NCBI GenBank assembly: GCA_947311825.1
Contig: CAMZLY010000081.1
Location: 1 to 63,906 of the forward strand
Direction of reading: 5' to 3'
Length of the DNA stretch: 63,906 nt
DNA from: an uncultured bacterium
Lineage (GTDB): Bacteria > Verrucomicrobiota > Kiritimatiellia > UBA8416 > CAMZLY01
Below are positions 12,010-58,536 of the stretch, in pieces. How positions within the stretch are numbered: the first letter of the stretch is position 1; every line of letters begins with the position of its first letter. The translations under genes were made by a program, and so were the position numbers. The notes beneath the pieces are model-generated. The model had not been told where the DNA came from. It did not search any database and saw only the letters and a list, made by a program, of their open reading frames with translations.

Positions 12010-12076
12010 GTAGCGTTGGCTCTATGAGCCAAAAACACTTAATCTGTAACGCACGCAACTCGCACATCCATCGGCT
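12010..12076 (-). repeat. Hairpin intergenic module, short copy C
   Basis: GTAGCGTTGGCTCTATGAGCCAAAAACACTTAATC.. shares the GTAGCG + TTGGCTCTATGAGCCAA hairpin + CTTAATC layout with copies A and B. Confidence 0.75.
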
Positions 12077-35679: not shown

Positions 35680-36495
35680 CTATTCTTCTGTTGTTTTCTT
35701 TCGCCAAATCTTTAATTCATTCATTATAGCAACATGTGCCGCAACAACATTCATCATAACGGCAGGCTCCTTTTCTTTAGTAAAAGCAGAACCTCTGTAG
35801 GCAGAAACCAACGTAAGCATATCCTCACTAGCCCACGAAGGCTGTTTTAATCTAAGAAATGTCCATATATCACATCGCGAATTATTCCACTTTGCCTGAA
35901 GCATCATTTTCGTATTAGTAATTGGATGCTTTAAACTGGACCATGTTAATCCACGAGGCACCCAACTAGGATCCTCCTCCATACCTACCCTGGGGAACAC
36001 CATAGAGCGAACATCAATCGCTAATGCAGAGAAGTCACCTGACCTCAACATGCTAGTAACCCAAATAGATATACCACCTGAACTTGATGTTAATCGCCAA
36101 ATCTGCAACTGCTTAGGCAAATTATTAGTAACAGATTCATGCCCACGCCTAGTATCGGCAAGCAAGTCAACTGTATATCCCTTAATCTTCATGCAATCGC
36201 ACATATTGTAACCATGCACTAATCTAGTTAAAACAATAGAATCATTTTCTTGCTCCCGCGGTTTAATCATGAATGCAGCAACATTTGGCTCCATCACGGT
36301 TGTAACAACCGGTACCGACTTAATAATATATTTACTTTTATCACTCTGTTCAAAGCCAACAAAAGCATCATTGCTTAACTTAAAAGCATCGAGAGCACGA
36401 TTACTGTAACTTGACATTATTTCCCAGAATCCCACCAAGAAAACACAAACAAGAAGTGCCACAGCTGTAACTATCTGTTTTTTTTCATGTGCCAT
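35680..36495 (-). CDS. Membrane-anchored protein, tentatively EpsI-like (exosortase-associated)
   Basis: About 271 aa from the ATG at 36495 (the track's TTG is at 36510). One TM helix, then a soluble domain containing VHGYNMCDCMKIKGY. This recalls the H-x4-C-x4-G-(W/Y) block I remember from EpsI-family proteins. Last gene of the exosortase operon. Weak call. Confidence 0.3.
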   Translation of the reverse strand: MAHEKKQIVTAVALLVCVFLVGFWEIMSSYSNRALDAFKLSNDAFVGFEQSDKSKYIIKSVPVVTTVMEPNVAAFMIKPREQENDSIVLTRLVHGYNMCDCMKIKGYTVDLLADTRRGHESVTNNLPKQLQIWRLTSSSGGISIWVTSMLRSGDFSALAIDVRSMVFPRVGMEEDPSWVPRGLTWSSLKHPITNTKMMLQAKWNNSRCDIWTFLRLKQPSWASEDMLTLVSAYRGSAFTKEKEPAVMMNVVAAHVAIMNELKIWRKKTTEE

Positions 36496-36512
36496 CCAAA
36501 GCCTCTTCAATT

Positions 36513-37934
36513 CTACTTTGATCGCTCTTTTCCAAAAAGGACAATACGTAAAGTACTAAGAATAATCTGTAAATCAAGACTCAACGATAAATGTTTAATA
36601 TAATAAAGGTCATACTCTAATTTTCGCTTAGCATCTTCAACTGAACTACCGTAATGATATCTAATTTGTGCCCAGCCAGTAAGCCCCGGCATCACATTCT
36701 CTCTTTCACGATAAAAAGGAATATCTTTTTCAATCCGGTTTATAATAGAGGTACGTTCTGGGCGTGGACCAACTAAGTTCATTTCTCCACGTAAAATATT
36801 AAAAAACTGCGGAATTTCATCTATCCTTGTTTTGCGCAATATGCGCCCAAACCAAGTAATTCTTTCATCATTATCTGCAGCCCAAACTGGTCCAGTATCA
36901 TCTTCCGCACCATGCCGCATTGTGCGAAGTTTATATATCGTAAAAAGTACACCAAAACGCCCTTCTCTTTCCTGAGAATATAGAATGGGACTACGAGGCT
37001 CAAGTATCTTCATAATCAAAGCTACTAATAATAACAATGGTGCAGATAAAATGACGGCAAATAAGGAAATAAGTATATCTGATATTCTTTTCATCCTCCA
37101 TATACTCTGCAAACGTGACTCCATACTAACCTGCATCAATAATTCCTCATCAACATATTCTAATGGAGTCATTCCGCTATATATTTCAGCAATATGCAAT
37201 GGCAAAAGAACCTCCATCCCATTGAAGCGTAAATGTTTTAATTGCGGATATAATATATTAGCCTTACTCATATCATCAAGTGCAAGTATAATTAAATCAA
37301 CCCCCAGACTATTGACAACCTCTTCTAATTTATCTGGAGATGCATAAATCACCACTACACCATCATTAAAATCAGAACCAGAACGTAATTCAACCTTAGT
37401 GTCCAAAACAGAAATGAAAGCTACCGCTTTATGTGCAGGGAGCACAAATTCTTTTTCTATAATACGACGACAAAACCTAGCACTCTTACCGCTACCAATA
37501 ATAACAGAACGACAAGTAAAACGCTCACTTCTGAATAGTGCCCTATAGACCATCATTTTAAGGGATAACGACACGACACTGTAAACTATAACAGAAATAA
37601 GAAGTACGCCACGTCCAAGCACCACCATAAACCAAGCATAAGAAGTAATACTAAGGATAAAAAGAGCAAAAACCAATGAGAATAGCCAAGTAACAATGAG
37701 GTTAAACCTGGAAAATGTATATTGAACTCTATAGCTACCAGCCAAATAATTAGCTAAGATAACACCACCAAAGAACATCATCCAGCCATCTATATGCTCA
37801 AAAGCATAAACTGCGGTTGCTCCATGTCCTAGCCGACCAATGATACCAGCCGCACCGCCGATAATTAGACAAACTAAATCTATTAACGCCAACCAAGCAA
37901 TCTGTACACGAACATGTGAACGAGCCATTACCAT
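36513..37934 (-). CDS. Polyprenyl-phosphate hexose-1-phosphate transferase (bacterial sugar transferase, WbaP/EpsB-like)
   Basis: 473 aa. N-terminal TM helices, a central Rossmann-like part, and a C-terminal catalytic domain with YKLRTM, DEIPQFFNILRGEMNLVGPRPE and KLEYDLYYI. Confidence 0.85.
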   Translation of the reverse strand: MVMARSHVRVQIAWLALIDLVCLIIGGAAGIIGRLGHGATAVYAFEHIDGWMMFFGGVILANYLAGSYRVQYTFSRFNLIVTWLFSLVFALFILSITSYAWFMVVLGRGVLLISVIVYSVVSLSLKMMVYRALFRSERFTCRSVIIGSGKSARFCRRIIEKEFVLPAHKAVAFISVLDTKVELRSGSDFNDGVVVIYASPDKLEEVVNSLGVDLIILALDDMSKANILYPQLKHLRFNGMEVLLPLHIAEIYSGMTPLEYVDEELLMQVSMESRLQSIWRMKRISDILISLFAVILSAPLLLLVALIMKILEPRSPILYSQEREGRFGVLFTIYKLRTMRHGAEDDTGPVWAADNDERITWFGRILRKTRIDEIPQFFNILRGEMNLVGPRPERTSIINRIEKDIPFYRERENVMPGLTGWAQIRYHYGSSVEDAKRKLEYDLYYIKHLSLSLDLQIILSTLRIVLFGKERSK

Positions 37935-37962: not shown

Positions 37963-40266
37963 TCAAGAGAAAGTATTTCTAACCCACCGATCAAATGATT
38001 TTCTTGCATTTTGTAGTGGATTCTTGCGGCGATATTTAACCGCTTTACCCTTTTGCTCACCATAATTATAATAATTATAACCATAGGCATAAGCATTACT
38101 GTAATAAGCATAATTAGGATATTGATAAGCATAATAAAGACTGCTTATCTTATGCATTTCAATACTATTCATAATTAATCCCAATACATTTGCTTCCTTC
38201 AACATATCAAGAGAATAGCGAATCAGTGGTTTTGGAGTATGATTAACACGTGCAACATATATAACCACTCCAACGCCCAGCGTTGTCATAATAACCGTAT
38301 CAGTTACTCGCAGAATTGGTGATGTATCAACAAAAATATAGTCATAATCATCTTGTAGTTCTACCAACATTGCCATTAGATTTGCTGACTGTAACATTTC
38401 AGATGAACCATCATACGTTTTACCTGTCGGAGCCAAGGAAAGATTTTCTATGCGCGTAGAAACAATAACATCCTTAATAGTACGTTGATCTTTTAATGCA
38501 TCAGTGATACCAGGAGCCTTTGAAACACCTAATGATCTATGCAGGCGTCCACGACGTAAATCCATGTCAATCAACAAAACCTTCTTCTCCATCTGTGCTG
38601 TCATAATAGCTAAATTAAGCGTTGTTAATGTTTTTCCTTCACGGGAATCAGCACTGGTAACAAAAACAATCTTTTCATTAAGCTTAGCAAGCTCTGTAAT
38701 CAAAACTGTACGCAGTGCACGATACGCCTCTACCGCTCCTGAAGAATGCTCTTCTGTCACAATTGGACGAACCGTACGCTCAAGACCACTATGCACCCAA
38801 TAAGGAACCCCACCTAAGAATTTAATTTCTAAATCTTTTTCAACATCTTTAATAGATTGAATCTTATTATCCAGAAACTGCATAAAAAATGATATCCCAA
38901 AACCTGCACCAAGCCCAATAACAACCGCAACTAACAATATTCTTGAGGGATCTGGCCAAGTGGGCTTTGTCGGAGATGTTGCATGTCGTACTATTGAAAA
39001 TCTTTCGGTATTCGTTTCTTCAGCAATCTTTGTTTCATGATAACGTGCGTAAAGTGTACTGTAGTTTTTCTTATACCGTGTAAGCGAATCCTTAAACCTT
39101 GATAACTCAGTTTCTTTAACCATAGATTGCAAACGTTTTGCCTGCCATTTATATTCCATAGACTCAAGTGATTTAAGTAAAATCAACATTGATTTATGCT
39201 TATCCCTCAAAGACATAAGCTTTAACTGTGCCAAATAATTCATCTGATCTTTAATGTTTTTTATTTTAGCATCAACAGCACGCACAAGCTGATGTTCAGG
39301 AGTTAGATTCTTTTGGAGTTCCGCTTTTTCATCTTTAAGATTTAATAATTTCAATCGTAAAGTTACCAACCCTGTAATTTCATCTTCACCACTTGTCCCC
39401 TTGCCGGGATTGACCGTACTTCCATTCCCATCGCTATCTTCAGGAAAAGCATCTTTCAACCATTCATCATCATTTCCGCCAGTTTTCCTCCCGGCCGCAT
39501 CAAATTTAGAAGCTTTATCTGACACTATACCGGCAGCCATACTATCAACTGCTGAGATCACTGCTAGATTGGAATCTTTTAATTCAGGATTAGCAGTTTC
39601 CATCATAAACAGTTCGGTCTCAAGGGCAGTGCGACGACTCATTATACGCTTAATAAACCCCTCCTCAACCCTAGCTCTAATAGTTTGCCGTGTAAGGTCA
39701 TTCAGTCGAGTATATTCTATAATATTATTCTGGGCTTCTTCTATTTTTTCTTCTGTAAGTGACATCTCTGCTAACAACGCCTTAATCGCATTACTCATTG
39801 ACTGCCGTTGCTTACTACGCCATTGCACCTCATGAATCGATAATAATGTATCAAGAAATTTTATTGCATACTCACGGTTAACACACTTAGTCGAGATGGT
39901 AACGCTTGACCTGCCCGGTCGTGCAGAAACAGACAACGCCATCGCCTTACGCCCCCCCATTTGCTCAGACCACTCATCAAATAATTTATCCACTGTACGA
40001 TCCCGTAAATCGGCACTGGACAATAATTGCGCATGCGTTCCCGGTCGTGCCCATTGCCCTGCAGCCTTAGTAACAGTTGTCAATGGATCACGATAAATGG
40101 AAATAGCACAACTTGCTTCGTACTGTGGAGGAGTAAAATCAATATATAACACACCGCCAAGCAGTGCATATAAAAAACAGACAACGATAGTCTTCCAATG
40201 GAAAAAAATCATTCCTATATATAGCCGAATATCTATCGGTTCGCTTTGTTCTAATTCTTGTGGCAT
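37963..40266 (-). CDS. Polysaccharide co-polymerase / BY-kinase (Wzc-like chain-length determinant with tyrosine autokinase)
   Basis: 767 aa. Two TM helices flank a long coiled-coil periplasmic region. Walker A SADSREGKT, Walker A' LLIDMDLRR, Walker B IFVDTSP. The tail is Tyr-rich: YYAYQYPNYAYYSNAYAYGYNYYNYG. Confidence 0.85.
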   Translation of the reverse strand: MPQELEQSEPIDIRLYIGMIFFHWKTIVVCFLYALLGGVLYIDFTPPQYEASCAISIYRDPLTTVTKAAGQWARPGTHAQLLSSADLRDRTVDKLFDEWSEQMGGRKAMALSVSARPGRSSVTISTKCVNREYAIKFLDTLLSIHEVQWRSKQRQSMSNAIKALLAEMSLTEEKIEEAQNNIIEYTRLNDLTRQTIRARVEEGFIKRIMSRRTALETELFMMETANPELKDSNLAVISAVDSMAAGIVSDKASKFDAAGRKTGGNDDEWLKDAFPEDSDGNGSTVNPGKGTSGEDEITGLVTLRLKLLNLKDEKAELQKNLTPEHQLVRAVDAKIKNIKDQMNYLAQLKLMSLRDKHKSMLILLKSLESMEYKWQAKRLQSMVKETELSRFKDSLTRYKKNYSTLYARYHETKIAEETNTERFSIVRHATSPTKPTWPDPSRILLVAVVIGLGAGFGISFFMQFLDNKIQSIKDVEKDLEIKFLGGVPYWVHSGLERTVRPIVTEEHSSGAVEAYRALRTVLITELAKLNEKIVFVTSADSREGKTLTTLNLAIMTAQMEKKVLLIDMDLRRGRLHRSLGVSKAPGITDALKDQRTIKDVIVSTRIENLSLAPTGKTYDGSSEMLQSANLMAMLVELQDDYDYIFVDTSPILRVTDTVIMTTLGVGVVIYVARVNHTPKPLIRYSLDMLKEANVLGLIMNSIEMHKISSLYYAYQYPNYAYYSNAYAYGYNYYNYGEQKGKAVKYRRKNPLQNARKSFDRWVRNTFS

Positions 40267-40278
40267 TTAGGCGTCCTT

Positions 40279-41376
40279 CTAGAAAAGGCTAATACGGCGA
40301 GCGGGAACAATTACACGGTCACCATCTTCTAAGGCGAAATCCTGCTCAGGATTACCCTCTTTCATTATCTGCTTTGCATTTACGGTGAATTCAACATCTT
40401 CACCAGCAGCATTTTTTCTTATAACTCTAATGGCTTTTTCTTTTGCATAAAGCGGCAACCCACCTATTTTGAACATAAGGTTCATCATTGTAGCTGATTC
40501 AGCAGGACCAAAAGTAATAAAGCCTTTTCTTCGAACCTCCCCCAGCAACAAAATAGTTACTGGCTCAATTTTGGTTTCTGATACACCGCCACCTTCAACA
40601 TCTGACGCCGTTACCTTGCCGCCGACAATAACACGAACCAGATCATTGTTCCGTAATCGCAATGAAGGAACCCGAGGGGTACCATCATCATCGACAAGGT
40701 AATAATCCTCGCCCGGCAAAGAGTATGCAAGTGGCGACTGAAGACCATCTTTAACAACACTTACTTTTATTTTATTGGCAGATGCATTCAACCCGCCCGC
40801 ACGCAATAATAAGTCATTAAGTGATATGGAGTCACCTGCTCCAATCTGAATAATACCTGGCTTAGTAACAGATCCCACAATTTTAACCTTGTCGTATGAT
40901 GCCCTTAAAATTCTTACCTTAACTGTAGCCCTACTGAAATTGCGTGTTTTTAAAACTTCTTCAATTTTACGAGCCGCCTCACGTTCAGTTTTATTAAACA
41001 AAAATACCGGCCCCACATATTTCAGCTGAACAGCACCAAGGTTATTAACAGTATAACTACCGTCTAGCGATGGATCTTCCGCCACATTGATCATTAACAG
41101 GCAATCGGGTTGAATAGTTATACTTTCGTCTGAATCTGAATATCCGCTATCACTATATTTTCCTGCCGCATCTCCAGCGGCAGAAACAGGCGGTAACCCC
41201 GTCATTGGTGCATCCGGAGCATCTGGTCCGGCAGGAATATCATCAACTACTTCAGCAACATCAGAGGCTTCTAGTTCGGCCAAATATTGTTGGGCTGCCA
41301 CATCACGCTTTGTTGCACAACCCATGCCACCAAAAACCATAATACTCATTAAAAATAGTAATAAAAATCGTTGCAT
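40279..41376 (-). CDS. Outer-membrane polysaccharide export lipoprotein (Wza-like, Poly_export + SLBB)
   Basis: 365 aa. Lipobox VFGGMGC, the Poly_export-like block ITIQPDCLLMINVAEDPSLDGSYTVNNLGAVQLKYVG, and the C-terminal GDRVIVP. Confidence 0.8.
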   Translation of the reverse strand: MQRFLLLFLMSIMVFGGMGCATKRDVAAQQYLAELEASDVAEVVDDIPAGPDAPDAPMTGLPPVSAAGDAAGKYSDSGYSDSDESITIQPDCLLMINVAEDPSLDGSYTVNNLGAVQLKYVGPVFLFNKTEREAARKIEEVLKTRNFSRATVKVRILRASYDKVKIVGSVTKPGIIQIGAGDSISLNDLLLRAGGLNASANKIKVSVVKDGLQSPLAYSLPGEDYYLVDDDGTPRVPSLRLRNNDLVRVIVGGKVTASDVEGGGVSETKIEPVTILLLGEVRRKGFITFGPAESATMMNLMFKIGGLPLYAKEKAIRVIRKNAAGEDVEFTVNAKQIMKEGNPEQDFALEDGDRVIVPARRISLF

Positions 41377-41485: not shown

Positions 41486-44400
41486 TTATAACCTTTTGTT
41501 ATCCCTTATTGCTTTTTCAACCTCTTTAAGCATCACTTTTGACGTTTTATCTACAATAAAATTGCGGCCAGAACTCACCCCAACTTCAGTAATAATGCCT
41601 TTTGCTTCCTTTATATTACCAGCCTTAAAAAGTATTCTTGCCATATTAAGACGCATTTCCAACACCCTTGAATCATCATCAGGTACTAGAGCCATAGCCT
41701 TATCCATGTACTTACGAGCCAACTCAATCTCACCACTATACAAATAGACCATTGCCACAGTATCAAGAATTTCAAAGGATCCTTCACTATTTTCCAAAAG
41801 TTTATCCAAATATACACGAGCCTTATCAACTGTTGCCGGGTTCATAGCAAGATAATACACATAGTTGTTTAAAACTGATATATCTTGCGGATGTAATCTG
41901 TTTGTAGCATCAATTATACTTATTGCCTGCTTGTTTTCACCCTGCTGCCGAGCTGCTTCCGCCGCTAACATTAACGATTCTGTACGAACCTCTTTTATAT
42001 TGTTTTCTATCATCGGCTCCAAAACATCTAAAGCTCGTTTCATATCTTTATTTTTGAAATAAACAAAACCCAATGTTTCGTTCAACTGAGAACTACTGCC
42101 ACTACTACTACGCAAAAACTCTAGAGCGTTAACCATAGCACCATCAGTTTCTTTTTGTGCAACCTTAATTTGCACTATTGTTTTATAAAATATTGCCGGG
42201 TCATGTGCAAGCAAGATACTATCAAAGGCCAAATCAAGTGCTAATTGCCAATCTTTATTCTTTAATGCACAACGTAAACCCAAAACATACGGCGGCAATA
42301 CGCCATATCCATTTTTCACACCATACTCTGCCGCTACTGCGGCTGAGTCGATTAAGTTATTACGATACAATAAATCACCCGCACGCGTTATATCTCTAAC
42401 GGAATATGCAGAATTACTTACAGCCTCAACAACCATATCACCAACAGCCGCAGCAGTTTCATTACTCATACTTACCACAACATCCGCCAGCCATATACTA
42501 GAATCATTGGGACACGCAATTCTGGCGGCTTTAACAACATCTTTAGCACCCTTTGCCAGCTTGATTTGTAATCGATGCAAAAGTGGATTATGCGGCATAT
42601 ACTCAATGGCTTTCGATAAAGCCTGCTTAGCTACAGAATAATGCTCCTGCTGAATTGACAAAAGTGCCAATCGGTGCAAAGCATCACTTTTCTCATAGTC
42701 ATCTCTCCCTACGGCATCCCAGTCATCAATTTTTACATATTTCGACTCCCCGCCAGATTTATACCAAACTGCCGTTATCGCCGCTAAATTCTTTACAAAT
42801 GGACTAACTGCACCTTTCTCTACTGTTTCAAAAGCAACAGCACGATCTTTTAGTTGCTCATCAGTTAATGGTTTTGGCCAAATATCAGCAATAACACGCT
42901 CAGCCGGAGCAAAGTTTAAAAGCGTACTGTTTTCTATCCCTCTCCTGACTAACCGAGTTCCCCATACCTTACTCATCTTGTCAGCTTCTTTAAAACGCCC
43001 CGTATCATATAACAGTTGCGGCGATATTGCCGCCGAATTGAGAAGCCCCGCCTGATCCAACACAAAGAAAGCGTCTTCGGGAAAGCCAAACATATTCCAG
43101 AGAGCAACTTTTGATAAAGCAAGTTGCGGGGCACCAGAGAATATTCCTTCTGCATCCCGAATCAACTGCATCGCTGAAATACCCATATCTAAATGTATCA
43201 TTGCATTTATATTCTGCAAAACCGCATTAAGAGTGATTTCACCAGCAACCAGATTATATTGGCGTAGCGTCTCATATACCTTCCCCCAGCGCTTTTCCTC
43301 TGTATATAATGTGGCTTGACGCAACAATAAATCACGCTTCTGCTCTGGATATTGTACCAATAAAGCCGCCAACATCTTATGGGCTTCAGCGTACTCACCA
43401 TCAAGAGCCAAAACAAATGGATACATAATCTGCATACGATAACTCAACAAACCAGATTCACTTCTTTTTTTTAGTTCACCAAGACATTTAATCAAACTTG
43501 CCGCACGCAAATCCTCTATATCATCAACCAATAATTCTGACCTTAAAGGCACTTCAGCCAAAAATGATTTTAATGGCTCTACAGACTCTGTTAATTTACA
43601 AAACTCTCGCAAATCAAGAAGATTTTCCCGTTCATCTATCGGCACCTCAATATCTTTTCTTGAAAATCTAAACCAATTCACTCCAAACTGTACCACCGCC
43701 AACGCAAGAGCCGGATCATCAGCATCTAACTGCTGTAAATCAAGATAAGCAATCCAGCCCAAATCGGGTCGCTGCAACTTAAAACAATTCCCGAGATATT
43801 CAGCCAAAACATCTTGCGGCAATCTAGTAAGGTTGGCTTTAAAGTTCGCTGCCATCTTTTCCTCCCAGCCCGCACCTGGACGGCTAAGTGCCATCTTTGT
43901 AATATACCCCAAAAACCTCGCATCTTCAGGCCAACTTTTTAAAGCAACCCTTAATACCCGCTCCGCACCAAGTATATTTCTTTCCCGCAAATTAGCACTA
44001 ACAGCTATCAATGCCTGCGAGACCTCATCAAACGGAACGTCACTATTACAGTCAACTATTGCACCCCACTGCTCACGTGTAGCCAAATATGGGAAAAGAT
44101 TACGAACCCGCGAAGAAAGAGCCGTCCATTTAGCTGCCAATACAATATTCTTACTAACATCTTCTGCATTATCTTTACGTGCCGCATATTCAGCACGAAC
44201 AATAGCAACTCCCGGCAGACGTTTATCAGCATCAGGCAACGCATTAAGCACATCCATCGCTTCATCCATACGATCCAAGGCCATTAATGCCCAGCTTTTC
44301 CAGATCACCTCAATCAATTCTAGCTCACCATCAAGTGCATCTATTTTTACCAACACATCTTCAAATCTTTTCTGCTTCAACAGAATTCGTATCTGCTCAA

Positions 44401-45493
44401 TCCGCATCTCAGTATCGTCAGGGTCATACGCCAATACCTTCTCAATTGCACGGGCGGCAAGTTCTGGATCCCGTTCTGTCAATCCGGGAATAACATCACG
44501 AATCATCTCATTGCGATGGCTTGGCCTTGATTTAATTGCCGCAAAAACCACCACCAATATAAGCGTCATTCCCAAAACAACAAAACCACCCCTCCTGGAC
44601 ATAAAACGCCAAAACTTAGGTAATACACTACCAAGATCTGCCGGTTCAAGTTCACCGCGCAAAATCCCGCTTCTAATACGTATTCTCTTATCTGACCAAT
44701 ATTTATACAAAGACATTTCCACTTGGATAATCATAATAGATATAAAAAGAAATATACCGAGAGTATCATGCAGAAAAGTAGAAGCCCATTCCGGTGACAT
44801 TTGAGGTGCCCAATATACCATACCACTAATACGTACTACATTAAAAAACAACACTTGCACCACGCTAAATACCAAAAATGACAATAATTGCCACCACTTA
44901 AATCTTAGAAGAATACTGGTACCCAAAGTACACAACACCACCGTAACAGCCGTACGCATACCGCTACATGACTCCGGCACTCCAAACGTGGAACCATTAG
45001 TATAAAGAGCCATGCCATCAGCCCATACCCTGATATTAAACCCGTGCAATACCCATTCAGACACCTTAACCGATATCATCTGCATAATAATCTGAAAATG
45101 CCCAAAAATCTGCCCTGGCAACGGATGAACCCAATAAAGCATAAAAAGCGACAGCACAATATCTGTACCAAAACGAACAGGCAACGCCCATCGTAGGCAT
45201 GCATACAGCACAAAAATCAGGCCCAACCACTCAAACTGATGCACATGGAAAATAATACCATACAACGCCATAATAGTACCGCAACCACCAACTACCGGCA
45301 AAACCCATTCAGGTATTTTTACAACCACATCCCGTTCTTTCCAACGAAACAAAATAAATATCGCAAAAAACACTCCCAGAACAAACCGAATAAACCCCTC
45401 CTCATCTCCAGTCAGCCGCCCATAATTAGCAATACCCCAAGCCACCATCAAGAAACCGGCAGCAAACAAAACTATTTTTTTTACAAAACTCAT
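41486..45493 (-). CDS. Exosortase (EpsH/Xrt-like transpeptidase) fused to a ~1000-aa TPR/helical-repeat domain
   Basis: One uninterrupted ORF. The N-terminal ~290 aa are polytopic, with GVPESCSGMRT (Cys), FFNVVRISGM (Arg) and FLHDTLGIF (His) in exosortase order. An extra TM helix follows, then long helical repeats to the C-terminus. ATG at 45493; the track's GTG is at 45505. Confidence 0.7.
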   Translation of the reverse strand: MSFVKKIVLFAAGFLMVAWGIANYGRLTGDEEGFIRFVLGVFFAIFILFRWKERDVVVKIPEWVLPVVGGCGTIMALYGIIFHVHQFEWLGLIFVLYACLRWALPVRFGTDIVLSLFMLYWVHPLPGQIFGHFQIIMQMISVKVSEWVLHGFNIRVWADGMALYTNGSTFGVPESCSGMRTAVTVVLCTLGTSILLRFKWWQLLSFLVFSVVQVLFFNVVRISGMVYWAPQMSPEWASTFLHDTLGIFLFISIMIIQVEMSLYKYWSDKRIRIRSGILRGELEPADLGSVLPKFWRFMSRRGGFVVLGMTLILVVVFAAIKSRPSHRNEMIRDVIPGLTERDPELAARAIEKVLAYDPDDTEMRIEQIRILLKQKRFEDVLVKIDALDGELELIEVIWKSWALMALDRMDEAMDVLNALPDADKRLPGVAIVRAEYAARKDNAEDVSKNIVLAAKWTALSSRVRNLFPYLATREQWGAIVDCNSDVPFDEVSQALIAVSANLRERNILGAERVLRVALKSWPEDARFLGYITKMALSRPGAGWEEKMAANFKANLTRLPQDVLAEYLGNCFKLQRPDLGWIAYLDLQQLDADDPALALAVVQFGVNWFRFSRKDIEVPIDERENLLDLREFCKLTESVEPLKSFLAEVPLRSELLVDDIEDLRAASLIKCLGELKKRSESGLLSYRMQIMYPFVLALDGEYAEAHKMLAALLVQYPEQKRDLLLRQATLYTEEKRWGKVYETLRQYNLVAGEITLNAVLQNINAMIHLDMGISAMQLIRDAEGIFSGAPQLALSKVALWNMFGFPEDAFFVLDQAGLLNSAAISPQLLYDTGRFKEADKMSKVWGTRLVRRGIENSTLLNFAPAERVIADIWPKPLTDEQLKDRAVAFETVEKGAVSPFVKNLAAITAVWYKSGGESKYVKIDDWDAVGRDDYEKSDALHRLALLSIQQEHYSVAKQALSKAIEYMPHNPLLHRLQIKLAKGAKDVVKAARIACPNDSSIWLADVVVSMSNETAAAVGDMVVEAVSNSAYSVRDITRAGDLLYRNNLIDSAAVAAEYGVKNGYGVLPPYVLGLRCALKNKDWQLALDLAFDSILLAHDPAIFYKTIVQIKVAQKETDGAMVNALEFLRSSSGSSSQLNETLGFVYFKNKDMKRALDVLEPMIENNIKEVRTESLMLAAEAARQQGENKQAISIIDATNRLHPQDISVLNNYVYYLAMNPATVDKARVYLDKLLENSEGSFEILDTVAMVYLYSGEIELARKYMDKAMALVPDDDSRVLEMRLNMARILFKAGNIKEAKGIITEVGVSSGRNFIVDKTSKVMLKEVEKAIRDNKRL

Positions 45494-45523
45494 ATAAAGA
45501 ACCACCCCAATATATTAACAAAC

Positions 45524-47044
45524 TTAAAATTGATGGGTATAACGGAAATATGCCTCAAAAATATCACGAGTATAAACTAGATCGTCATTATCACTATCCC
45601 GAGAAACATGTGTATAATATGTGTAAAACTTGATTGTCTTTGTTACAGCAAAAGAAGATCCGATGCGCCCCATCCATGTATCGTAGTTGGATGTAGTTTC
45701 AGGATCATATAATTCATTCGGTAATAAATTAGGCTGATTCTCGCGTACCTGATAACGTAACACTCCATGCAATTCTATATACCTTGTTAGAGGGTAAGTA
45801 ACATCCAGTCGTGTAATCCAATCAGCGTAATCACTAAATATATTTCCACTCGGCACTGTTGTTCTATATTCAGAAAGCAAAGTAGCCGTAGTTGCCTCAC
45901 CATGCCATTCCAACCGATACTCAAGACTATCAACAAGCTCAAAAGCCGTACGATAACCAGTATTTATACTGCTGGAATATCCAAGCGAATGCCACACATC
46001 CTCCATCAACAACGTCTTAATACTAGCAAACCAAATAAACTGAGCAAAATTATTGCCATCAGCACCATATATATCAGAAATATTATTGGTAGATATCACC
46101 CCATCAACATTGCGAATCTGATCCCCCGCACGTATCTCACCATTAACTCCAGCAGAATACCCTATACCTATTGATGCCGTTGTATAATCACTCATCTTGA
46201 TGTGTAATCCATTATCATCACCAAGCCCATCATTATATCTAGCAAAAAGATAAAACGACTGATAACTATTATCAGGTCTATAATCAACCTTATAAGTTGT
46301 CTGATTAAAGCTATAATTGCCACCAACGGATATATTGCCGATCACACGTTGTGAATACTCCAACATCTGTTCATACGTAATACGTTCCTGATCGTCAAAT
46401 CCGTCACTAAAAGGAATAACATCTTGGCGACTTACATCAAATCGAAACTTCTTACCCCGTGCAAAATTCCAGTCAAGATATGTACCAATAGTATTATCAA
46501 TATACTCATACCGTTCACCACCATAACGGTCTGCATTTCCACGCGTATCAAAATAATCAGTGCGATACTTAAATCGATCATATAACGTACCGGTAAGCAC
46601 TGGTGTTATCCGGTAATTCAAAGTAATCGTTCCTAATACTCCCTCCTCCGGCATATCAAAATAAAACCCGCCCTCCTGCGTATCTAACGGATAATACTCA
46701 TAACTCATCCAGAACGAAATATCCAAATCCATCTTCCTTGTTATCAAAACATAATTCCTGAACGACAAAGTTGAAATCAACGGAAAATCTGAACCATCTT
46801 TTCTGATCTCACCACGCCGATTATTATAAAGATAATCGGTGCCTTTACCGGAACTCCCGGTCCACCTATATCCAAACTGTTGCGTAAATGCTACCGTTGA
46901 ATAAAATGGGCCAATCCGTAAAGTAGCATAATCAGGAATATTAACATCACGAGTATTATCAAAAGTTATTGCCTGCCCAAACAACATCCCCGCAAAAAAC
47001 AAATACGCCACAATAACAACTATTATGTTTTTATATATTCTCAA
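45524..47044 (-). CDS. Outer-membrane beta-barrel protein of unknown function
   Basis: 506 aa. Signal peptide (RIYKNIIVVIVAYLFFAGMLFGQ), alternating aromatic beta-strand pattern rich in Y/R/D/N/G, and a terminal ...FRYTHQF (C-terminal Phe). TTG start. Confidence 0.6.
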   Translation of the reverse strand: MRIYKNIIVVIVAYLFFAGMLFGQAITFDNTRDVNIPDYATLRIGPFYSTVAFTQQFGYRWTGSSGKGTDYLYNNRRGEIRKDGSDFPLISTLSFRNYVLITRKMDLDISFWMSYEYYPLDTQEGGFYFDMPEEGVLGTITLNYRITPVLTGTLYDRFKYRTDYFDTRGNADRYGGERYEYIDNTIGTYLDWNFARGKKFRFDVSRQDVIPFSDGFDDQERITYEQMLEYSQRVIGNISVGGNYSFNQTTYKVDYRPDNSYQSFYLFARYNDGLGDDNGLHIKMSDYTTASIGIGYSAGVNGEIRAGDQIRNVDGVISTNNISDIYGADGNNFAQFIWFASIKTLLMEDVWHSLGYSSSINTGYRTAFELVDSLEYRLEWHGEATTATLLSEYRTTVPSGNIFSDYADWITRLDVTYPLTRYIELHGVLRYQVRENQPNLLPNELYDPETTSNYDTWMGRIGSSFAVTKTIKFYTYYTHVSRDSDNDDLVYTRDIFEAYFRYTHQF

Positions 47045-47147: not shown

Positions 47148-48767
47148 CTATTTCCGTAAAAAAACTTCAAGCCGCGTTCCGGCCTGTCCAAAACTATCTA
47201 CAGCATAACACAACTCATAATTTCGTTCTAAAATCTCCCATAAAACAACCTGTTCTTGCACCGGTAACTCAGCAACTTCAGGACAGCCAATTGCAAAACC
47301 ATAACCACTAAAAGCAGCTACCGGAGCAGAAGCCTTCTCCAATAATTCAATTAATGACGTTCTATTAAGCACATGACAAGCATCAGCCTTCTCTCGTGAC
47401 CAATTCGGAAAATAACTGAAAGGCCCCAGCTCCAAGCCATACGGAACCCGTGCTCCAGTTTCAACTGCCAAATAAATATCCTGCGTCAAAAGCAAATCAT
47501 TCGGGCCCAACTCTTTTCTGATTTCAGCGGCAGTCTCACGCAATATTGCCAATGAACTTTTTTCCTTAAAAGGCCACCATATTCTATCTCGGTCTCCAAT
47601 AAACCAGCCCTGAATCATAGGTGATGCAAACGCCGCCGCCATATTAAGAATAAAAACAATCAGTAATAACACCACTAAAGGCGAATATTTTGATCCTTCT
47701 GTTAAAACAGTAAAACTTGATAACAATCTAATAATAAATATAGACAGAAAAACAGCCAACAAAGGAAATATCATAACCTGATAATCATCATACGGAAAAG
47801 CCGCAACAAAATGTAATAGTGTAACAGCCGCAATAGCTACACAAAGAGACATATACAATGGAGACCATGCCTGACCTCGTTTTTTTGTTAGCCAAGTAAC
47901 AACCCCACCGACAAGTAAGCCTCCCAATGCAACAAAATAAACATTAAATAGCCGAGCAACAAACCCGGCCTTATAAGCCAAAATCTTAAATAACCCTCCC
48001 GCTTCACGTCCTGCATGATATTCAACAAGCCCAAACAACGTGGCCTCCGGTGCTTTTATCAAAAACGGCAAAAAAACCAATAACCCCGTCAATAACGCAC
48101 CAGCGGCAACCCACACAGCCGTTTTGAGATGAGAAGCATCACCCTTACCACGTAAAACATAAATAATATATACCAGTAAAACTGCCGGAATAACAGCAAT
48201 TGCCGAAAGACGCGTAGCAACAGCAAGTGACATAAACACACCAGAGATAAAAGCCGGCAGATAACCACGCTTTCCTTTACAAAAACTCAAAGCCAGAAAA
48301 CTACACACCAACAACAATCCAGCAAGAGCATAAGTTTTTACAATAACAAAGAAATAAGATTGATAAACATTTATCCCGATAAAAACAAATGTCATCAATG
48401 CCGCTACCCCCGCAACCTCCTTGGTCTCTTTTTGTTTTTCTGAGTTTAATACCATCATGCGATAAGCAAGCCAAGCCGCACCAATAGTGCAAAGCAAGCC
48501 CAAAACCGCCGTAAATATTCTCCCCCCCAACACACCAAAAGCATCAACCAATGGCCAGGCAATAGCATAAACAAACGCCATAATCGGCCCCTGCGTACTC
48601 GCAAAATCAATAAATGGCAACTGTCCCTCCGCCACCATCCTTCCAGAATAAAGATACCAGCCCTCATCCTGATTAAGCTCACCAAACCAAATATTAGCCG
48701 TAGCAAGCACCAAAGTTGCAACAACCACAACAGGCCAAAGAATCTCCAATAAACGTTTTATACTCAT
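47148..48767 (-). CDS. GT-C fold glycosyltransferase (ArnT/PMT-like, polyprenyl-phosphate-sugar dependent)
   Basis: 539 aa. More than 10 TM helices in the N-terminal two-thirds, an early acidic loop motif (GELNQDEGWY), and a soluble C-terminal domain. This architecture is typical of GT39/GT83-type enzymes. Confidence 0.65.
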   Translation of the reverse strand: MSIKRLLEILWPVVVVATLVLATANIWFGELNQDEGWYLYSGRMVAEGQLPFIDFASTQGPIMAFVYAIAWPLVDAFGVLGGRIFTAVLGLLCTIGAAWLAYRMMVLNSEKQKETKEVAGVAALMTFVFIGINVYQSYFFVIVKTYALAGLLLVCSFLALSFCKGKRGYLPAFISGVFMSLAVATRLSAIAVIPAVLLVYIIYVLRGKGDASHLKTAVWVAAGALLTGLLVFLPFLIKAPEATLFGLVEYHAGREAGGLFKILAYKAGFVARLFNVYFVALGGLLVGGVVTWLTKKRGQAWSPLYMSLCVAIAAVTLLHFVAAFPYDDYQVMIFPLLAVFLSIFIIRLLSSFTVLTEGSKYSPLVVLLLIVFILNMAAAFASPMIQGWFIGDRDRIWWPFKEKSSLAILRETAAEIRKELGPNDLLLTQDIYLAVETGARVPYGLELGPFSYFPNWSREKADACHVLNRTSLIELLEKASAPVAAFSGYGFAIGCPEVAELPVQEQVVLWEILERNYELCYAVDSFGQAGTRLEVFLRK

Positions 48768-49645: not shown

Positions 49646-52201
49646 ATGGATAATTCAGAACAAAATACGGAATTTACACCAATAAAAATACTGGTGGTTG
49701 ATGACGAGGCAGGTATCAGAAAAATATTCTGTGCCGCACTAGCCCAACAAAACCACTATACAAAATCAGCCAGCAACGCTAGAGAAGCTCTTCTTATTCT
49801 TATGCAGGAGGATTTTGATGTTCTAATTGTAGACCTAAATATGGGCGAGATGAACGGCATCACATTTCTTCAAGAGGCACTAAATATATGGCCTTGGCTA
49901 GGTGTCATTATTGTTTCTGGCTACGTCACTGAGGGAGCAATCAAAAATGCCAACAAACTTGGCATAACACGCTTAATGAACAAACCGGTACAGCTAAAGA
50001 CTTTATGCGATAATGTTATAGAAGAATATAAACTTAAGCAAAAGAGACAAGAAAATATCCCCGCCGAAAATGCACTTATATTAATGCGCAATCACCTGAA
50101 TATTTTAACACGTTTAAGCCAAAATATTTCCGGCACCGAGACGCTTTCCAAGATTCTACTTGAATTCTCCAGTTCTATCGTAGAGATGTTTCCCTCCAAT
50201 ATTGTTGGCATACTTATTTCGGATGAAGAAAATACTCTACTTATGTCCACGCAAAAAACCGTTTCCCAAAACTTTGTAAATAACGTTAAAAAAGAAATGC
50301 TAACCCGCTATACCGCCATAAGCGGAAACAAACTTGATCCAGACAACATCACTCTTAATATAGAAAGTGATAAAATCCAGGAAGATGGTGCCAAAGAAAT
50401 AGGGAGCATCATTTCAGTTCCTACTATAATTGATAATAATATACATGGTATTCTTACCCTTGCCTGTGAAAGAAAAGATGCGTATCACCCATCAGACATC
50501 TCCCTTCTTTATCACGCAGCAAACCACATTTCTGCCGCTTTTATTGCATTAGAAAAGATGCACCACTTAGTCACCCGCGACCCATTAACCGGGGCGTTCA
50601 ACAGAATAAGACTAAACGAAGAAATAGAGCGGGCATGGCTCACAAGCCATCGGTACGATTATTCCATGGCGATAATTATCGTTGATGTAGATCACTTCAA
50701 AACACTAAACGATACATTTGGGCATAACGTAGGCGATGAAACTCTCTGTGCGTTTGCCAAAATCATGCAAGAAGCCTCACGTACAACAGATATTATCGCA
50801 AGATATGGTGGCGACGAATTTGTCGCCATCCTTCCACGAGCAGATAAAGAAGACGCCGTTGCTTTTGGTGAAAGATTAATGAAAAAAACCAGAGAATACA
50901 CTCTGGAAAAAGAAGGCAATAAAATAAAACTGAGCATCTCTATAGGAATCTCTACCAGCCTGAATCATACCAAACCAGCCTCGTACTCAGAACTTCTCAT
51001 TCAGGCAGATCAAGCACTATACACAGCCAAAAATTCCGGCAGAAATAGAATCTGTATATGGCCAGATCACACCTGCAGCAGCATTGTCGAAAATATCATT
51101 GCAACAAACATCCCTGATACAGAAGATAATCATGCCTATGAAATAGCAGAAATCAAAGAACAAGTTGGTAGAATCTTGCTTGTCGATGATGATGAACCAA
51201 TCCTTAAAGTAATTAAAGCCATGCTAAATTTCGATGGCTACGAAGTCGATACTTTTACAACTGCAACTGAGGCACTGGAACATCTAAAAACAAAACATGG
51301 CTACTATAATATTCTCATGACCGATCTGGGGCTACCGGACATGAATGGATTAGAAGTATTACATAAAGCAAACGAACTTGATGACTCAATAATAAAAATA
51401 GTTATCAGCGGACAGGCCACCGTAGATAATGCCATTAATGCCCTACGTAAAGGGGCCCACGACTTTATTCAAAAACCTGTCATAAAAGAACAACTTTCAA
51501 TAATGATAAAACATGCACTCGAATTCCATAAACTGAAAAGAGAGAACAAACGACATCAAATACACTTGGAAGAAACCGTCAATAAACGTAGTGCTCAACT
51601 GGCCGCAACTCTTGAAGAAACAAAACGATCTTACGAATTTACTCTCGAAGCAATGGTGGCAATGCTGGATGCACGCGAACGCCACACTGCCAAACATAGT
51701 ATAAGAACAAGATCAATGGCAATTATCCTCGCAAAACATATCGGAGTACCAAAAGAAGATATCAATAATATTGCATCCGGTGCTTTATTACACGATATAG
51801 GAAAAATTGGCATACCAGATTCAGTCCTACTCAAAGAAGGTCCACTCACTGACGAACAATGGGTAATAATGAAAAAACATCCTCAAATTGGATATGATGT
51901 TATAAAAACAAGTCCATACCTTAAAGATGCCGCACAAATAGTATACCAACATCAAGAACGTCACGACGGAAACGGCTATCCTCAACACCTAAAAGGGGAA
52001 GAAATATGCATCGGTGCCAGAATCTTCTCCGTAATAGATGCTTATGATGCAATGCGCTCCAAGCGTGTTTATCGTGGACCAATACCCCCGGAAGCGGCAA
52101 TTGCCGACCTCATTCAAAACAAAGGTACACAATTTGACCCCAAAATAGTCGATGCATTCATTGAATGCCAACCAGAAATAGAAGCACTATTTTCTCAATA
52201 A
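49646..52201 (+). CDS. Hybrid response regulator: REC, sensor-like region, GGDEF, REC, HD-GYP
   Basis: 851 aa. ILVVDDEAG..LIVDLNMGEMNG (REC1), RYGGDEFVAILP (intact GGDEF), ILLVDDDEP..LMTDLGLPDMNG (REC2), HDIGKIGIPD and HQERHDGNGYP (HD-GYP). Confidence 0.85.
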   Translation: MDNSEQNTEFTPIKILVVDDEAGIRKIFCAALAQQNHYTKSASNAREALLILMQEDFDVLIVDLNMGEMNGITFLQEALNIWPWLGVIIVSGYVTEGAIKNANKLGITRLMNKPVQLKTLCDNVIEEYKLKQKRQENIPAENALILMRNHLNILTRLSQNISGTETLSKILLEFSSSIVEMFPSNIVGILISDEENTLLMSTQKTVSQNFVNNVKKEMLTRYTAISGNKLDPDNITLNIESDKIQEDGAKEIGSIISVPTIIDNNIHGILTLACERKDAYHPSDISLLYHAANHISAAFIALEKMHHLVTRDPLTGAFNRIRLNEEIERAWLTSHRYDYSMAIIIVDVDHFKTLNDTFGHNVGDETLCAFAKIMQEASRTTDIIARYGGDEFVAILPRADKEDAVAFGERLMKKTREYTLEKEGNKIKLSISIGISTSLNHTKPASYSELLIQADQALYTAKNSGRNRICIWPDHTCSSIVENIIATNIPDTEDNHAYEIAEIKEQVGRILLVDDDEPILKVIKAMLNFDGYEVDTFTTATEALEHLKTKHGYYNILMTDLGLPDMNGLEVLHKANELDDSIIKIVISGQATVDNAINALRKGAHDFIQKPVIKEQLSIMIKHALEFHKLKRENKRHQIHLEETVNKRSAQLAATLEETKRSYEFTLEAMVAMLDARERHTAKHSIRTRSMAIILAKHIGVPKEDINNIASGALLHDIGKIGIPDSVLLKEGPLTDEQWVIMKKHPQIGYDVIKTSPYLKDAAQIVYQHQERHDGNGYPQHLKGEEICIGARIFSVIDAYDAMRSKRVYRGPIPPEAAIADLIQNKGTQFDPKIVDAFIECQPEIEALFSQ

Positions 52202-52963: not shown

Positions 52964-54376
52964 ATGAAAACAAACGATACATCTGATGCACTACTAAGTG
53001 CCTTGTCCATATTTTGCGATGCACTTGCCGTTTACGGTAGCTTAATACTGGCCACCTGGATTCGATTTGGCTCAGGGATAATCCCCATTATAAATAATCC
53101 GCAACCAGATTTCTATAAAGTATATGCACAAGGCGCAATATTTGCCACAATTATATTTATTCTGGCTTTTCGTAACCTGGGTCTCTATATACGCCCACAA
53201 ACAGGATCATTTATTGATAAAATACCCAGGATTATAAAAGGCTGTACAACCGGTATGATCATAACCTTTATGCTGGCTTTTGCCGTAATTCACATTGCCG
53301 ACTTCTCAAGAATAACAATATTAATATCAATGTTTATAGCTGGATTCTTTGTTATTATAGAACGCTATGCCCTTTACAGACTCGAATGGAATATTGCACG
53401 ACACAGCAAAACCAGAAACAACATACTCATTCTAGGGACCGACTCATCCGCCGCACACCTAACAGATACACTTCAACAGGAAACCATGCTAAAAGCAAAT
53501 GTCATAGGATTCATGCAAACTGACGTATCTACACCCGATCCTAAAATTCCTACCAATAAAATCATAGGAAATATAGGAACTCTCAGTGACTTCCTAAAAA
53601 CTAATGAAGTTAATCAAATAATCCTAACCAACTCCAACCTTGGTCATGACAAAATAGTTGAAATAATATTACTTTGCGAACAAAACCTCATCACGTTTAA
53701 TATGATTCTCGATTTATTCCGCGTACTTACCAGCAGTATGGACGTGCAATCATTAAACGATATTCCTCTATTAGGAATAAGTAAATGGCCACTTGACTAC
53801 TTTTGGAAAAGAATGCTCAAACGTGCAGAAGATGTCATTGGTGCTTGCATTGCATTATTACTAAGTTCGCCCATAATTCTAATCGCAGCAATTCTCATCA
53901 AAAAATCCTCACCGGGTCCAGTGCTCTACAAACAGGAACGATGCGGAGAAAACGGAAAATCTTTTAACTTATATAAACTACGCACCATGAAAATCAATGC
54001 CGAACAACAATCAGGCCCCGTCTTTACTGCCGAAGATGACCCACGAACAACCAAAATAGGAGCATTTCTACGACGCAACAATCTTGACGAGTTACCACAA
54101 CTATGGAATGTAATTAAAGGAGAAATGAGCATGGTAGGACCACGCCCAGAACGTCCACACTTCGTCGAAAAATTTAAAACTGATATGACAAAATATATGT
54201 GGCGACACGTTTCTAAACCCGGCATGACCGGCTGGGCACAGGTAAATGGCCTGCGCGGCAACACAAGTATTGAAGAACGTATCAAATATGACTTATACTA
54301 TCTTGAAAACTGGTCATTGGCCTTTGATTTTAAAATATTAACAAAAACAATATTTGCAAATAAAAATGCATATTAA
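52964..54376 (+). CDS. Undecaprenyl-phosphate hexose-1-phosphate transferase (WcaJ/WbaP-like bacterial sugar transferase)
   Basis: 470 aa. The same architecture and catalytic blocks as 36513-37934 (YKLRTM, DELPQLWNVIKGEMSMVGPRPE, KYDLYYLENWS). Confidence 0.85.
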   Translation: MKTNDTSDALLSALSIFCDALAVYGSLILATWIRFGSGIIPIINNPQPDFYKVYAQGAIFATIIFILAFRNLGLYIRPQTGSFIDKIPRIIKGCTTGMIITFMLAFAVIHIADFSRITILISMFIAGFFVIIERYALYRLEWNIARHSKTRNNILILGTDSSAAHLTDTLQQETMLKANVIGFMQTDVSTPDPKIPTNKIIGNIGTLSDFLKTNEVNQIILTNSNLGHDKIVEIILLCEQNLITFNMILDLFRVLTSSMDVQSLNDIPLLGISKWPLDYFWKRMLKRAEDVIGACIALLLSSPIILIAAILIKKSSPGPVLYKQERCGENGKSFNLYKLRTMKINAEQQSGPVFTAEDDPRTTKIGAFLRRNNLDELPQLWNVIKGEMSMVGPRPERPHFVEKFKTDMTKYMWRHVSKPGMTGWAQVNGLRGNTSIEERIKYDLYYLENWSLAFDFKILTKTIFANKNAY

Positions 54377-58461: not shown

Positions 58462-58536
58462 TGGCACGCCCACGGGGAATCGAACCCCGCTTACCAGGAT
58501 GAAAACCTGGTGTCCTATCCGATAGACGATGGGCGT
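58462..58536 (-). tRNA. tRNA-Glu (anticodon UUC), CCA encoded
   Basis: The rc reads ACGCCCA TC GTCT ATCGGATA GGAC A CCAGG TTTTCAT CCTGG TAAG CGGGG TTCGATT CCCCG TGGGCGT G CCA. All four stems pair, a T-loop TTCGA is present, and the anticodon loop is TT-TTC-AT. Confidence 0.9.

Follow-up and report, generated by a model that had tools for sequence, protein, structure and literature searches.

Exosortases are widespread and have been characterised almost wholly in silico. A putative Cys-Arg-His triad of the exosortase/archaeosortase family has been defined (bioRxiv 10.1101/2023.06.07.544157). In the described XrtA loci, the large tetratricopeptide repeat (TPR) protein PrsT is encoded by a gene separate from that of the exosortase and is associated with PrsK/PrsR and with sigma-54-dependent PEP-CTERM genes (PMC1569441). 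PEP-CTERM-dependent floc formation in Aquincola was also found to have a genetic requirement for PrsT (PMC9850573). Only EpsH-CAAX-protease fusions are mentioned in Haft 2006, where PrsT is likewise given as a separate gene. Here we analysed a gene, termed Xrt-TPR, on the 63,906-nucleotide contig CAMZLY010000081.1 of an uncultured Kiritimatiellia bacterium (this whole 64-kb stretch is called the window), in which an exosortase core and a giant TPR region are encoded as one polypeptide. A first-pass annotation of this DNA had proposed such a fusion, had pointed out correctly that the two proteins are separate genes in the described loci, and knew of no characterisation of the architecture. Our literature search agreed with it: no description of an exosortase-TPR fusion, nor of Kiritimatiellae or Lentisphaerae exosortases, was found, and no curated NCBIfam model for this architecture was passed by the window protein. 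The gene belongs to an exosortase subfamily that is spread through a whole lineage, has not been curated and carries a giant TPR module by fusion; it is not a new mechanism class.

An exosortase core and a TPR solenoid in one reading frame

One uninterrupted open reading frame (ORF) of 1339 amino acids, counted from a GTG in the ORF listing, was present on the minus strand at 41486..45505, without any stop in between, as had been claimed (coordinates written with two dots are on the minus strand). An ATG at 45493, four codons downstream of the GTG at 45505, is preceded by a Shine-Dalgarno-like GGGGTGG. The public gene call P0001 begins at this ATG, and the N-termini of homologs align there, so that it is most likely the start of translation. 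The Xrt-TPR gene then covers 41486..45493, with the stop codon at 41486-41488, and encodes 1335 amino acids; residue numbers follow P0001, which is ORF numbering minus 4. Three parts lie in this one ORF, namely an exosortase core with eight transmembrane (TM) helices, a ninth TM helix and a TPR-like solenoid of about 1010 amino acids. The motifs quoted in the first-pass annotation (GVPESCSGMRT, FFNVVRISGM and FLHDTLGIF) were all present in the translation, with Cys, Arg and His in that order, and so was its extra TM helix, GGFVVLGMTLILVVVFAAI.

The exosortase core (residues 1-265, 44699..45493) was delimited by PF09721, TIGR04178, AlphaFold2 secondary structure and hydropathy. The Pfam family Exosortase_EpsH (PF09721) matched residues 30-260 with E = 6.2e-28 and 98.3 bits (cutoff 25.7), and the NCBIfam signature TIGR04178, which spans the Cys-Arg-His stretch, scored 47.9-50.9 bits against a cutoff of 23. 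A match to the exosortase superfamily was obtained for all 30 family members tested. The exosortase assignment made earlier is supported by both profile hidden Markov models (HMMs). Catalytic Cys176 (ORF residue 180, 44966..44968) lies in the motif VPExCSGMRT, Arg221 (ORF residue 225, 44831..44833) in QVLxxNxxRI, and His242 (ORF residue 246, 44768..44770) in FLHD at the outer end of core TM8. These three residues were invariant in 30 aligned homologs and unchanged in 49 aligned sequences with identity down to 36%, and the same alignments showed Pro173, Gly178, Gln213 and Asn218 to be likewise invariant. AlphaFold2 was run on residues 1-1200 with a 49-sequence alignment, giving a mean predicted local distance difference test score (pLDDT) of 87.5 and a predicted template modelling score (pTM) of 0.57. 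Its helix list, together with hydropathy, placed core TM1 at residues 3-22, TM2 at 31-48, TM3 at 64-81, TM4 at 85-103, TM5 at 106-120, TM6 at 180-195, TM7 at 200-227 and TM8 at 245-265. A periplasmic amphipathic helix was predicted at 126-151 (AlphaFold2 and hydropathy), and a small three-stranded beta-sheet at 157-171, immediately before Cys176 (AlphaFold2). Judged by its profile matches and conserved residues, the protein is a genuine exosortase-family enzyme with a Cys/Arg/His triad.

The named exosortase subtypes were compared as well. XrtA (TIGR03109) was the top Xrt model for the window protein, with 66-70 bits that do not reach its cutoff of 208, and its best E-value in the family was 2.9e-19. 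The best family-wide subtype E-value, 8e-22, was to XrtD and lay far below the XrtD cutoff. The other named subtypes (XrtB-XrtX and the cyanoexosortases) also remained far below their cutoffs, with 53 of 400 bits for XrtD, 38 of 313 for XrtV and 31 of 425 for XrtW. The label EpsH/XrtA-like is therefore right as to the exosortase superfamily and fails as to XrtA (66 vs 208 bits); on these scores, the protein is in a distinct exosortase subfamily that reaches no named Xrt subtype.

The C-terminal region (residues 321-1335, 41489..44533) was recognised as a TPR-like alpha-solenoid from Pfam TPR matches, AlphaFold2 and Foldseek. Several Pfam TPR models, including TPR_19, TPR_14, TPR_16 and TPR_2, were above cutoff in these C-terminal ~1000 amino acids. 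The AlphaFold2 model showed a continuous all-helical solenoid of about 50 helices from residue 324 to at least 1199, with non-helical inserts at 607-659 and 845-877, and canonical TPRs run on to the C-terminus (Pfam matches at 1245-1307), giving roughly 28 repeats in total. At the ~9 Å per repeat of consensus TPR superhelix geometry, 28 repeats would extend about 250 Å, a figure not used as evidence here. When searched against PDB with Foldseek, the solenoid returned long TPR scaffolds only (Ski3, IFT139, Ctr9, APC subunits, Naa15 and OGT), with low TM-scores. Inside the solenoid lies the motif C-P-x-D-[PS]-[ED]-[IV]-W-L-A (residues 994-1003, 42485..42514), one of the three patterns that retrieved the family in the genome scan, in which Cys994, Pro995 and Asp997 are invariant. 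Cys1075, a possible partner of Cys994, is conserved in only 80%, so an obligatory disulfide between the two is unlikely.

PrsT (TIGR02917) was the top TPR family in all 30 members tested, with a best E-value of 4.7e-32, ahead of MamA, PilW and SctY. The window protein scored 82 bits, which does not reach the equivalog cutoff of 312 for this model of ~899 positions. In the alignment, residues 1109-1307 correspond to model positions 708-896, i.e., the last ~190 residues to the last ~190 positions, and a second, weak match joins residues 345-391 to model positions 207-253. No lipoprotein signal or N-terminal lipobox was found in the window protein, whose TPR region follows TM9 in the same ORF, and no PrsK/PrsR-type match was seen among the annotated neighbours in the window. 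The earlier description as PrsT-like thus stands insofar as PrsT is the best TPR family throughout, and falls short in the bit score, in the limitation of the match to the last ~190 residues, and in the missing lipoprotein signal and PrsK/PrsR. By profile comparison, the TPR region is nearer to PrsT than to any other curated TPR family and is not PrsT by the criteria of that family; it may work like PrsT. A tblastn search of a plasmid collection with the C-terminal 239 amino acids gave one weak generic TPR match only. Six members are longer, at 1571-1695 amino acids (P0032, P0049, P0057, P0070, P0109 and P0117), and have an added TPR segment inside the chain. That they have another architecture was considered and rejected: P0057, the one longer member compared, has the same fusion with an extra TPR segment of ~300-350 amino acids after residue ~550, likely an internal duplication or insertion.

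The fusion is widely distributed. A search of 5.8 billion proteins gave at least 120 homologs of 1299-1695 amino acids with 36-81% identity, and homologs of ~1330 amino acids covered 97-100% of the query. Where given, their names were only "archaeosortase/exosortase family protein", and their sources were metagenome-assembled genomes (MAGs) of Kiritimatiellae, Lentisphaerae or Verrucomicrobiota. A scan of one genome per GTDB species gave 77 loci, all in MAGs of Kiritimatiellae, Lentisphaerae, Victivallales or Verrucomicrobiota. Every copy was full length unless cut by a contig end, the partial matches all lay at contig ends, and several MAGs carried 2-4 paralogs. The TPR part alone was searched against 1.84 billion cluster representatives at 50% identity, giving 212 at E <= 1e-30, 248 at E <= 1e-10 and 1086 at E <= 1e-3; these counts indicate that the TPR region is family-specific. 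Nearly all of the listed matches were 1300-1400 amino acids long, the match starting near residue 330. What might have been thought a unique fusion is instead a large family that is unnamed in public databases.

Split genes were looked for among the same matches. Three TPR-only gene calls were near full length, at 1004-1025 amino acids (P0161, P0163 and P0168), and the follow-up of split genes took in these three. One starts at a contig edge (L081), one showed a continuous same-frame alignment with an in-frame interruption (L082), and one had a frameshift in a contig of 5.6x coverage (L083). All three were therefore rejected as stand-alone TPR genes, and the comparison of related genomes gave the same fusion in 77 loci and no genuine split gene among those checked. 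Pairwise identities of the exosortase half and of the TPR half were correlated with r = 0.88 over 2211 pairs, indicating that the two halves are co-evolving. Clustering gave a main clade of 54 sequences that includes the window copy and about 13 divergent sequences; the divergent clade has 28-32% identity to the window protein and no exopolysaccharide (EPS) operon. As read from this distribution, the fusion is ancestral and kept by selection, and Xrt-TPR is a subfamily without a name, both ancestral to and universal in this Planctomycetes-Verrucomicrobia-Chlamydiae (PVC) lineage (Kiritimatiellae, Lentisphaerae and Victivallales).

The two halves are joined by a basic linker (residues 266-301, 44591..44698; GELExPD..LPxFWR), presumably cytoplasmic, and by the ninth TM helix (residues 302-320, 44534..44590; hydropathy 2.66, AlphaFold2 helix 293-321). 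The junction motifs GELExPD..LPxFWR, TM9 and the following YKxRPxHRxxM were kept in 30 of 30 aligned homologs with identity down to 36%, which excludes, without recourse to reads, a stop or frameshift artefact at ~44.5-44.7 kb. A covalent exosortase-TPR fusion through one extra TM helix, as proposed at first, is thus borne out by the ORF, the conserved linker and the homologs. Over 30 sequences, the loops L2, L6 and L8 were rich in Lys and Arg (L8 mean 8.9 K+R), and the loops that carry Cys (L5) and His (L7) were not basic. This charge pattern fits an N-in, C-in arrangement of the eight core TM helices, which would put the triad on the extracytoplasmic face. Since the core would end inside and TM9 crosses the membrane, the TPR region would come to lie in the periplasm, on the side of the active site. 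We consider this placement probable, and it would answer the question of topology that the first-pass annotation had raised.

Operon context and candidate substrates

The gene sits in a tight co-directional minus-strand cluster. Conservation of the neighbours was assessed by BLAST of the window proteins against the ORFs of the 77 loci. A predicted outer-membrane beta-barrel of 506 amino acids (45524..47044) lies 18-30 nt upstream of Xrt-TPR and has a homolog in 42 of the 77 loci. Downstream of Xrt-TPR are a Wza-like polysaccharide export protein (40279..41376; Poly_export and SLBB; 34 loci), a Wzc-like chain-length determinant/tyrosine autokinase (37963..40266; TIGR01007 at 128.5 bits, above cutoff; 30 loci), an EPS priming polyprenyl glycosylphosphotransferase (36513..37934; TIGR03025 at 326 bits vs a cutoff of 295.55; 29 loci) and, as the last conserved gene of the operon, a signal-anchored protein of 276 amino acids without Pfam or NCBIfam match (35680..36510; 15 loci). 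These neighbours keep their order and strand, and were found only where Xrt-TPR is at least 34% identical to the window copy. By this synteny, the outer-membrane beta-barrel, Xrt-TPR, Wza, Wzc and the priming glycosyltransferase are a fixed module of the main clade.

The 506-amino-acid protein is the most conserved neighbour, secreted with a signal peptide, and its family has at least 40 members. The protein itself gave no match in Pfam or NCBIfam; among 37 members of its family, three had weak Pfam matches to BBP2_2 and three to OMP_b-brl. Its AlphaFold2 model showed a plug-less barrel of about 24 strands (pLDDT 79.4, pTM 0.74), for which Foldseek returned TonB-dependent-transporter barrels, porins and MtrB. 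The prediction, made with good confidence, is of a large outer-membrane beta-barrel that lacks a plug. Further upstream, a polytopic membrane protein of 539 amino acids (47148..48767) has no family or PDB match and is syntenic in 17 loci. The "NQDEGWY" after its first TM helix resembles, as we presume, GT-C/PMT_2-type glycosyltransferases. A separate PMT_2 gene stands directly upstream of the fusion gene in L001. In a scan of the operon for promoters and terminators, promoter-like sites were no better than in shuffled sequence. Two elements are no more than suggestive: one 10/12 promoter-like site (47127-47095) that precedes the barrel gene, and a terminator-like hairpin (47186-47168) within the final codons of the 539-amino-acid gene, ~20 nt before its stop.

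Other features of the surroundings were also recorded. An 851-amino-acid signalling protein with receiver domains, GGDEF and a match to NosR-type cyclic di-GMP (c-di-GMP) phosphodiesterase response regulators is encoded at 49646-52201 (plus strand), and a c-di-GMP gene of this kind stood beside homologs in 0 of the related loci. A second sugar transferase (Bac_transf and CoA_binding_3) at 52964-54376 (plus strand), ~7.5 kb from the fusion gene, has homologs in 11 related loci. In L002:2750-8183 (Lentisphaerae MAG Zod_Metabat.245), the operon is locally rearranged: the barrel/Xrt-TPR pair is immediately preceded by an RHS/YD-repeat protein and a Y1 transposase, and the Wza-Wzc-glycosyltransferase genes are inverted with respect to their normal arrangement. 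The GC skew was strongly negative across the whole window (1-63906; -0.07 to -0.41 in 2-kb windows), in keeping with the prevalence of genes on the minus strand. The remaining window genes are housekeeping ones, such as ArgJ, LigA, PtsI, HprK, KdsA/KdsB, a secretin/PilM cluster (7362-12038) and tRNA-Glu (58462-58536), indicating that the window is chromosomal and not a mobile element.

Candidate substrates were found beside related copies of the gene. In at least 13 related loci, secreted proteins of 186-316 amino acids are encoded 6-440 nt from the fusion gene, and their tails consist of ..DNFxLM[VI]PEP[AG]E, a hydrophobic helix and RKKR. TIGR02595 (PEP_CTERM) was above cutoff for four of six tested, the other two being just below. 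A PEP-CTERM gene stands beside most divergent-clade copies (at least 8 of 15 loci, more by BLAST). Main-clade loci with an adjoining PEP-CTERM gene include L005, L027, L034, L059 and L063; it lies 15-352 nt upstream in L005, L027 and L034, and in L027 and L034 it is within the Wza-Wzc-glycosyltransferase operon. Of the evidence at hand, this proximity speaks most strongly for the processing of PEP-CTERM proteins by the family. Beside the PEP-CTERM gene, a paralogous protein of 320-410 amino acids is encoded at L047:14966-16183, L080:14833-15855, L050:1589-2554, L061:16114-17181 and L063:14973-16202. It has its N-terminal domain in common with the PEP-CTERM protein, is without the PEP-CTERM tail and ends in a conserved "..N.G.YFY[RK][IV]..", possibly a different C-terminal signal.

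Proposed function and alternative explanations

We think it probable, with real room for doubt, that Xrt-TPR is an inner-membrane cysteine transpeptidase/protease, an exosortase that processes PEP-CTERM proteins and carries in its own chain a periplasmic TPR scaffold with a link to EPS export. PEP-CTERM proteins would remain anchored by their C-terminal helix after Sec export, and the core would cleave at the PEP motif through an acyl-enzyme at Cys176 and then transfer the protein to an acceptor. The TPR solenoid in the periplasm would serve as a docking and hand-over platform on the active-site face, either holding the passenger domain of the substrate or bridging the enzyme to the outer-membrane barrel and Wza. 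Through such bridging, sorted proteins and exopolysaccharide could leave together. The TPR region would thus do in cis what PrsT-type TPR lipoproteins are suspected to do in trans in XrtA systems. An ancient, obligatory fusion beside an outer-membrane barrel and Wza/Wzc gives a "Rosetta-stone" argument, suggesting that large TPR proteins are physical partners of the enzyme in the periplasm and connect the sorting of proteins with the export of polysaccharide.

Several observations weigh against this proposal. No PEP-CTERM-tailed ORF was found in the window by a tail filter and a custom HMM, for which 15 tails were used, including a few spurious ones. A PEP-CTERM gene was within the flanks of only 7 of 62 main-clade loci, so that the substrate specificity of the window copy is an extrapolation. 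Throughout the family, transpeptidation rather than mere cleavage is unproven (bioRxiv 10.1101/2023.06.07.544157). Neither a family-profile sequence search nor Foldseek returned an exosortase template from PDB, only TPR proteins, and the catalytic geometry is therefore not comparable; likewise, the pTM of 0.57 allows no claim on contact between the TPR region and the active site. The 15 residues after TM9 (YKxRPxHRxxM) have a net charge of +3 and are as basic as the 15 before it, which makes the periplasmic placement of the TPR region an inference and not proof. In one main-clade homolog (L007:10001-14002, Kiritimatiellae MAG STD1_38), Cys replaces Arg221 and Ala replaces Arg180; this single exception to the conserved triad Arg may be a degenerate copy, a repurposed copy or a sequencing error. 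MAG STD1_38 also contains a divergent paralog (L047) that has a PEP-CTERM gene next to it.

That the long ORF is an artefact, either an assembly chimera or a missed stop or frameshift joining two ordinary genes, is practically negligible. Nothing beyond the three ~1000-amino-acid TPR-only gene calls in public data was found for it, and these came from truncation, interruption and frameshift; the same architecture in at least 120 independent assemblies and 77 species-representative loci, the conserved linker and the co-evolving halves speak against it. It is decidedly unlikely that the TPR region is a cytoplasmic regulatory or adaptor domain, for example one that binds Wzc or c-di-GMP effectors. 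Such a location would suit the basic residues after TM9, the many TPR proteins that are cytoplasmic and the c-di-GMP signalling protein encoded nearby. However, the family loop charges fit eight core TM helices with both ends inside, the 36-residue loop before TM9 averages 8.9 K+R, Cys, Arg and His lie at the opposite, non-basic helix ends, and the c-di-GMP gene accompanies none of the homologs. Known exosortase fusions, moreover, add one TM helix and a periplasmic EpsI domain. The charge data and the absence of that gene from related loci both tell against a cytoplasmic domain, and PrsT, the TPR family that comes closest, is a lipoprotein and hence extracytoplasmic (PMC1569441). A more elaborate possibility, which we hold to be unlikely, is that the ~28-repeat solenoid is a periplasm-spanning arm that docks the exosortase onto the outer-membrane barrel and Wza, forming a trans-envelope machine that would pass cleaved PEP-CTERM proteins, possibly covalently, to nascent exopolysaccharide. 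Cys994 of the CPxD motif could then be a second functional or relay site, and if this were true, the stand-alone PrsT of Proteobacteria would be the detached equivalent, with a structural rather than a regulatory role.

The scarcity of PEP-CTERM genes raises another question, namely whether the main clade, the window copy among it, has given up the sorting of PEP-CTERM proteins and has become a structural part of Wzx/Wzy-Wza-type export or recognises a non-PEP signal, only the divergent clade being a dedicated PEP-CTERM exosortase. The PEP-CTERM-free window, the contrast between 7 of 62 main-clade and at least 8 of 15 divergent-clade loci, the L007 copy without catalytic Arg and operon partners that are all polysaccharide-export proteins would agree with it. 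On the other hand, the triad and the surrounding motifs are invariant in 49 of 49 aligned members, mainly from the main clade, PEP-CTERM genes do stand close upstream in L005, L027 and L034, in the same operon in the latter two, and XrtA-type enzymes typically serve many unlinked, scattered substrates (PMC1569441). We regard this loss of PEP-CTERM sorting as improbable. Somewhat unlikely, and not exclusive of the PEP-CTERM-processing enzyme with a periplasmic scaffold, is that the C-terminal region is a true PrsT ortholog and the gene a literal xrtA-prsT fusion. PrsT is the top TPR family in 30 of 30 members, the C-terminal ~190 residues match end-to-end with the end of the PrsT model, the weak second match is roughly collinear, and the size is similar (~1000 amino acids vs 899 positions). 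Yet the score is 82 bits vs 312, ~750 middle residues have no PrsT match, neither a lipoprotein signal nor a PrsK/PrsR or sigma-54-type partner was seen in the window, the exosortase half is below the XrtA cutoff (66 vs 208 bits), and TPR-to-TPR similarity is notoriously non-specific.

The PEP-CTERM-processing exosortase with a periplasmic TPR scaffold is the favoured reading. A separate model and a name could be made for the subfamily, which comprises about 212 clusters at 50% identity. In the divergent clade, the enzyme gene and the PEP-CTERM gene beside it form natural enzyme-substrate pairs that could serve for co-folding or reconstitution. The family is also of interest for the cell envelope of Kiritimatiellae and Lentisphaerae, polysaccharide specialists that are mostly known from MAGs.

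Comparison with known systems

Xrt-TPR is like XrtA/EpsH in its fold family, in the eight-TM core with a Cys-Arg-His triad at the outer membrane face, and in its location inside an EPS locus, in which the best NCBIfam matches of the Wza-like, Wzc-like and priming-glycosyltransferase proteins are XrtA-associated models; PEP-CTERM proteins are the likely substrates of both. It differs from XrtA by the extra TM helix and the C-terminal TPR region of ~1010 amino acids, by its restriction to the PVC lineage and by the fact that no PrsK/PrsR was seen nearby. With PrsT it has in common a large (~900-1000 amino acids) extracytoplasmic TPR protein tied to an exosortase system. Unlike PrsT, which is a separate gene product with a lipoprotein signal, the window TPR region is tethered to the enzyme by a TM helix.

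Accessory domains at the C-terminus are found in longer exosortases such as XrtD, XrtW, XrtT and XrtN, in several of which an additional TM helix is followed by a periplasmic domain of the EpsI type. Their NCBIfam profiles have 406-494 positions, those of XrtD, XrtW and XrtT 472-494. Xrt-TPR parallels these four in combining an exosortase core, an added TM helix and an extracytoplasmic accessory module in one polypeptide. In contrast to XrtD, XrtW and XrtT, only the core of their models aligns (positions 20-249 of 486 for XrtD), and the accessory module is a TPR solenoid several times larger; no Pfam match to an EpsI/DUF3485 domain was obtained at E <= 1 in the window protein.

Finally, a TPR array encoded just downstream of an outer-membrane beta-barrel recalls AlgK/AlgE, PelB, BcsC and PgaA, in which such arrays and barrels work together to export exopolysaccharide; sequence matches to these were negligible (for PgaA, 18-24 bits vs a cutoff of 367). 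In those synthase-dependent pathways, the TPR region is fused to or partnered with an outer-membrane porin, whereas in the window it is fused to an inner-membrane protease within a Wza/Wzc-type locus.

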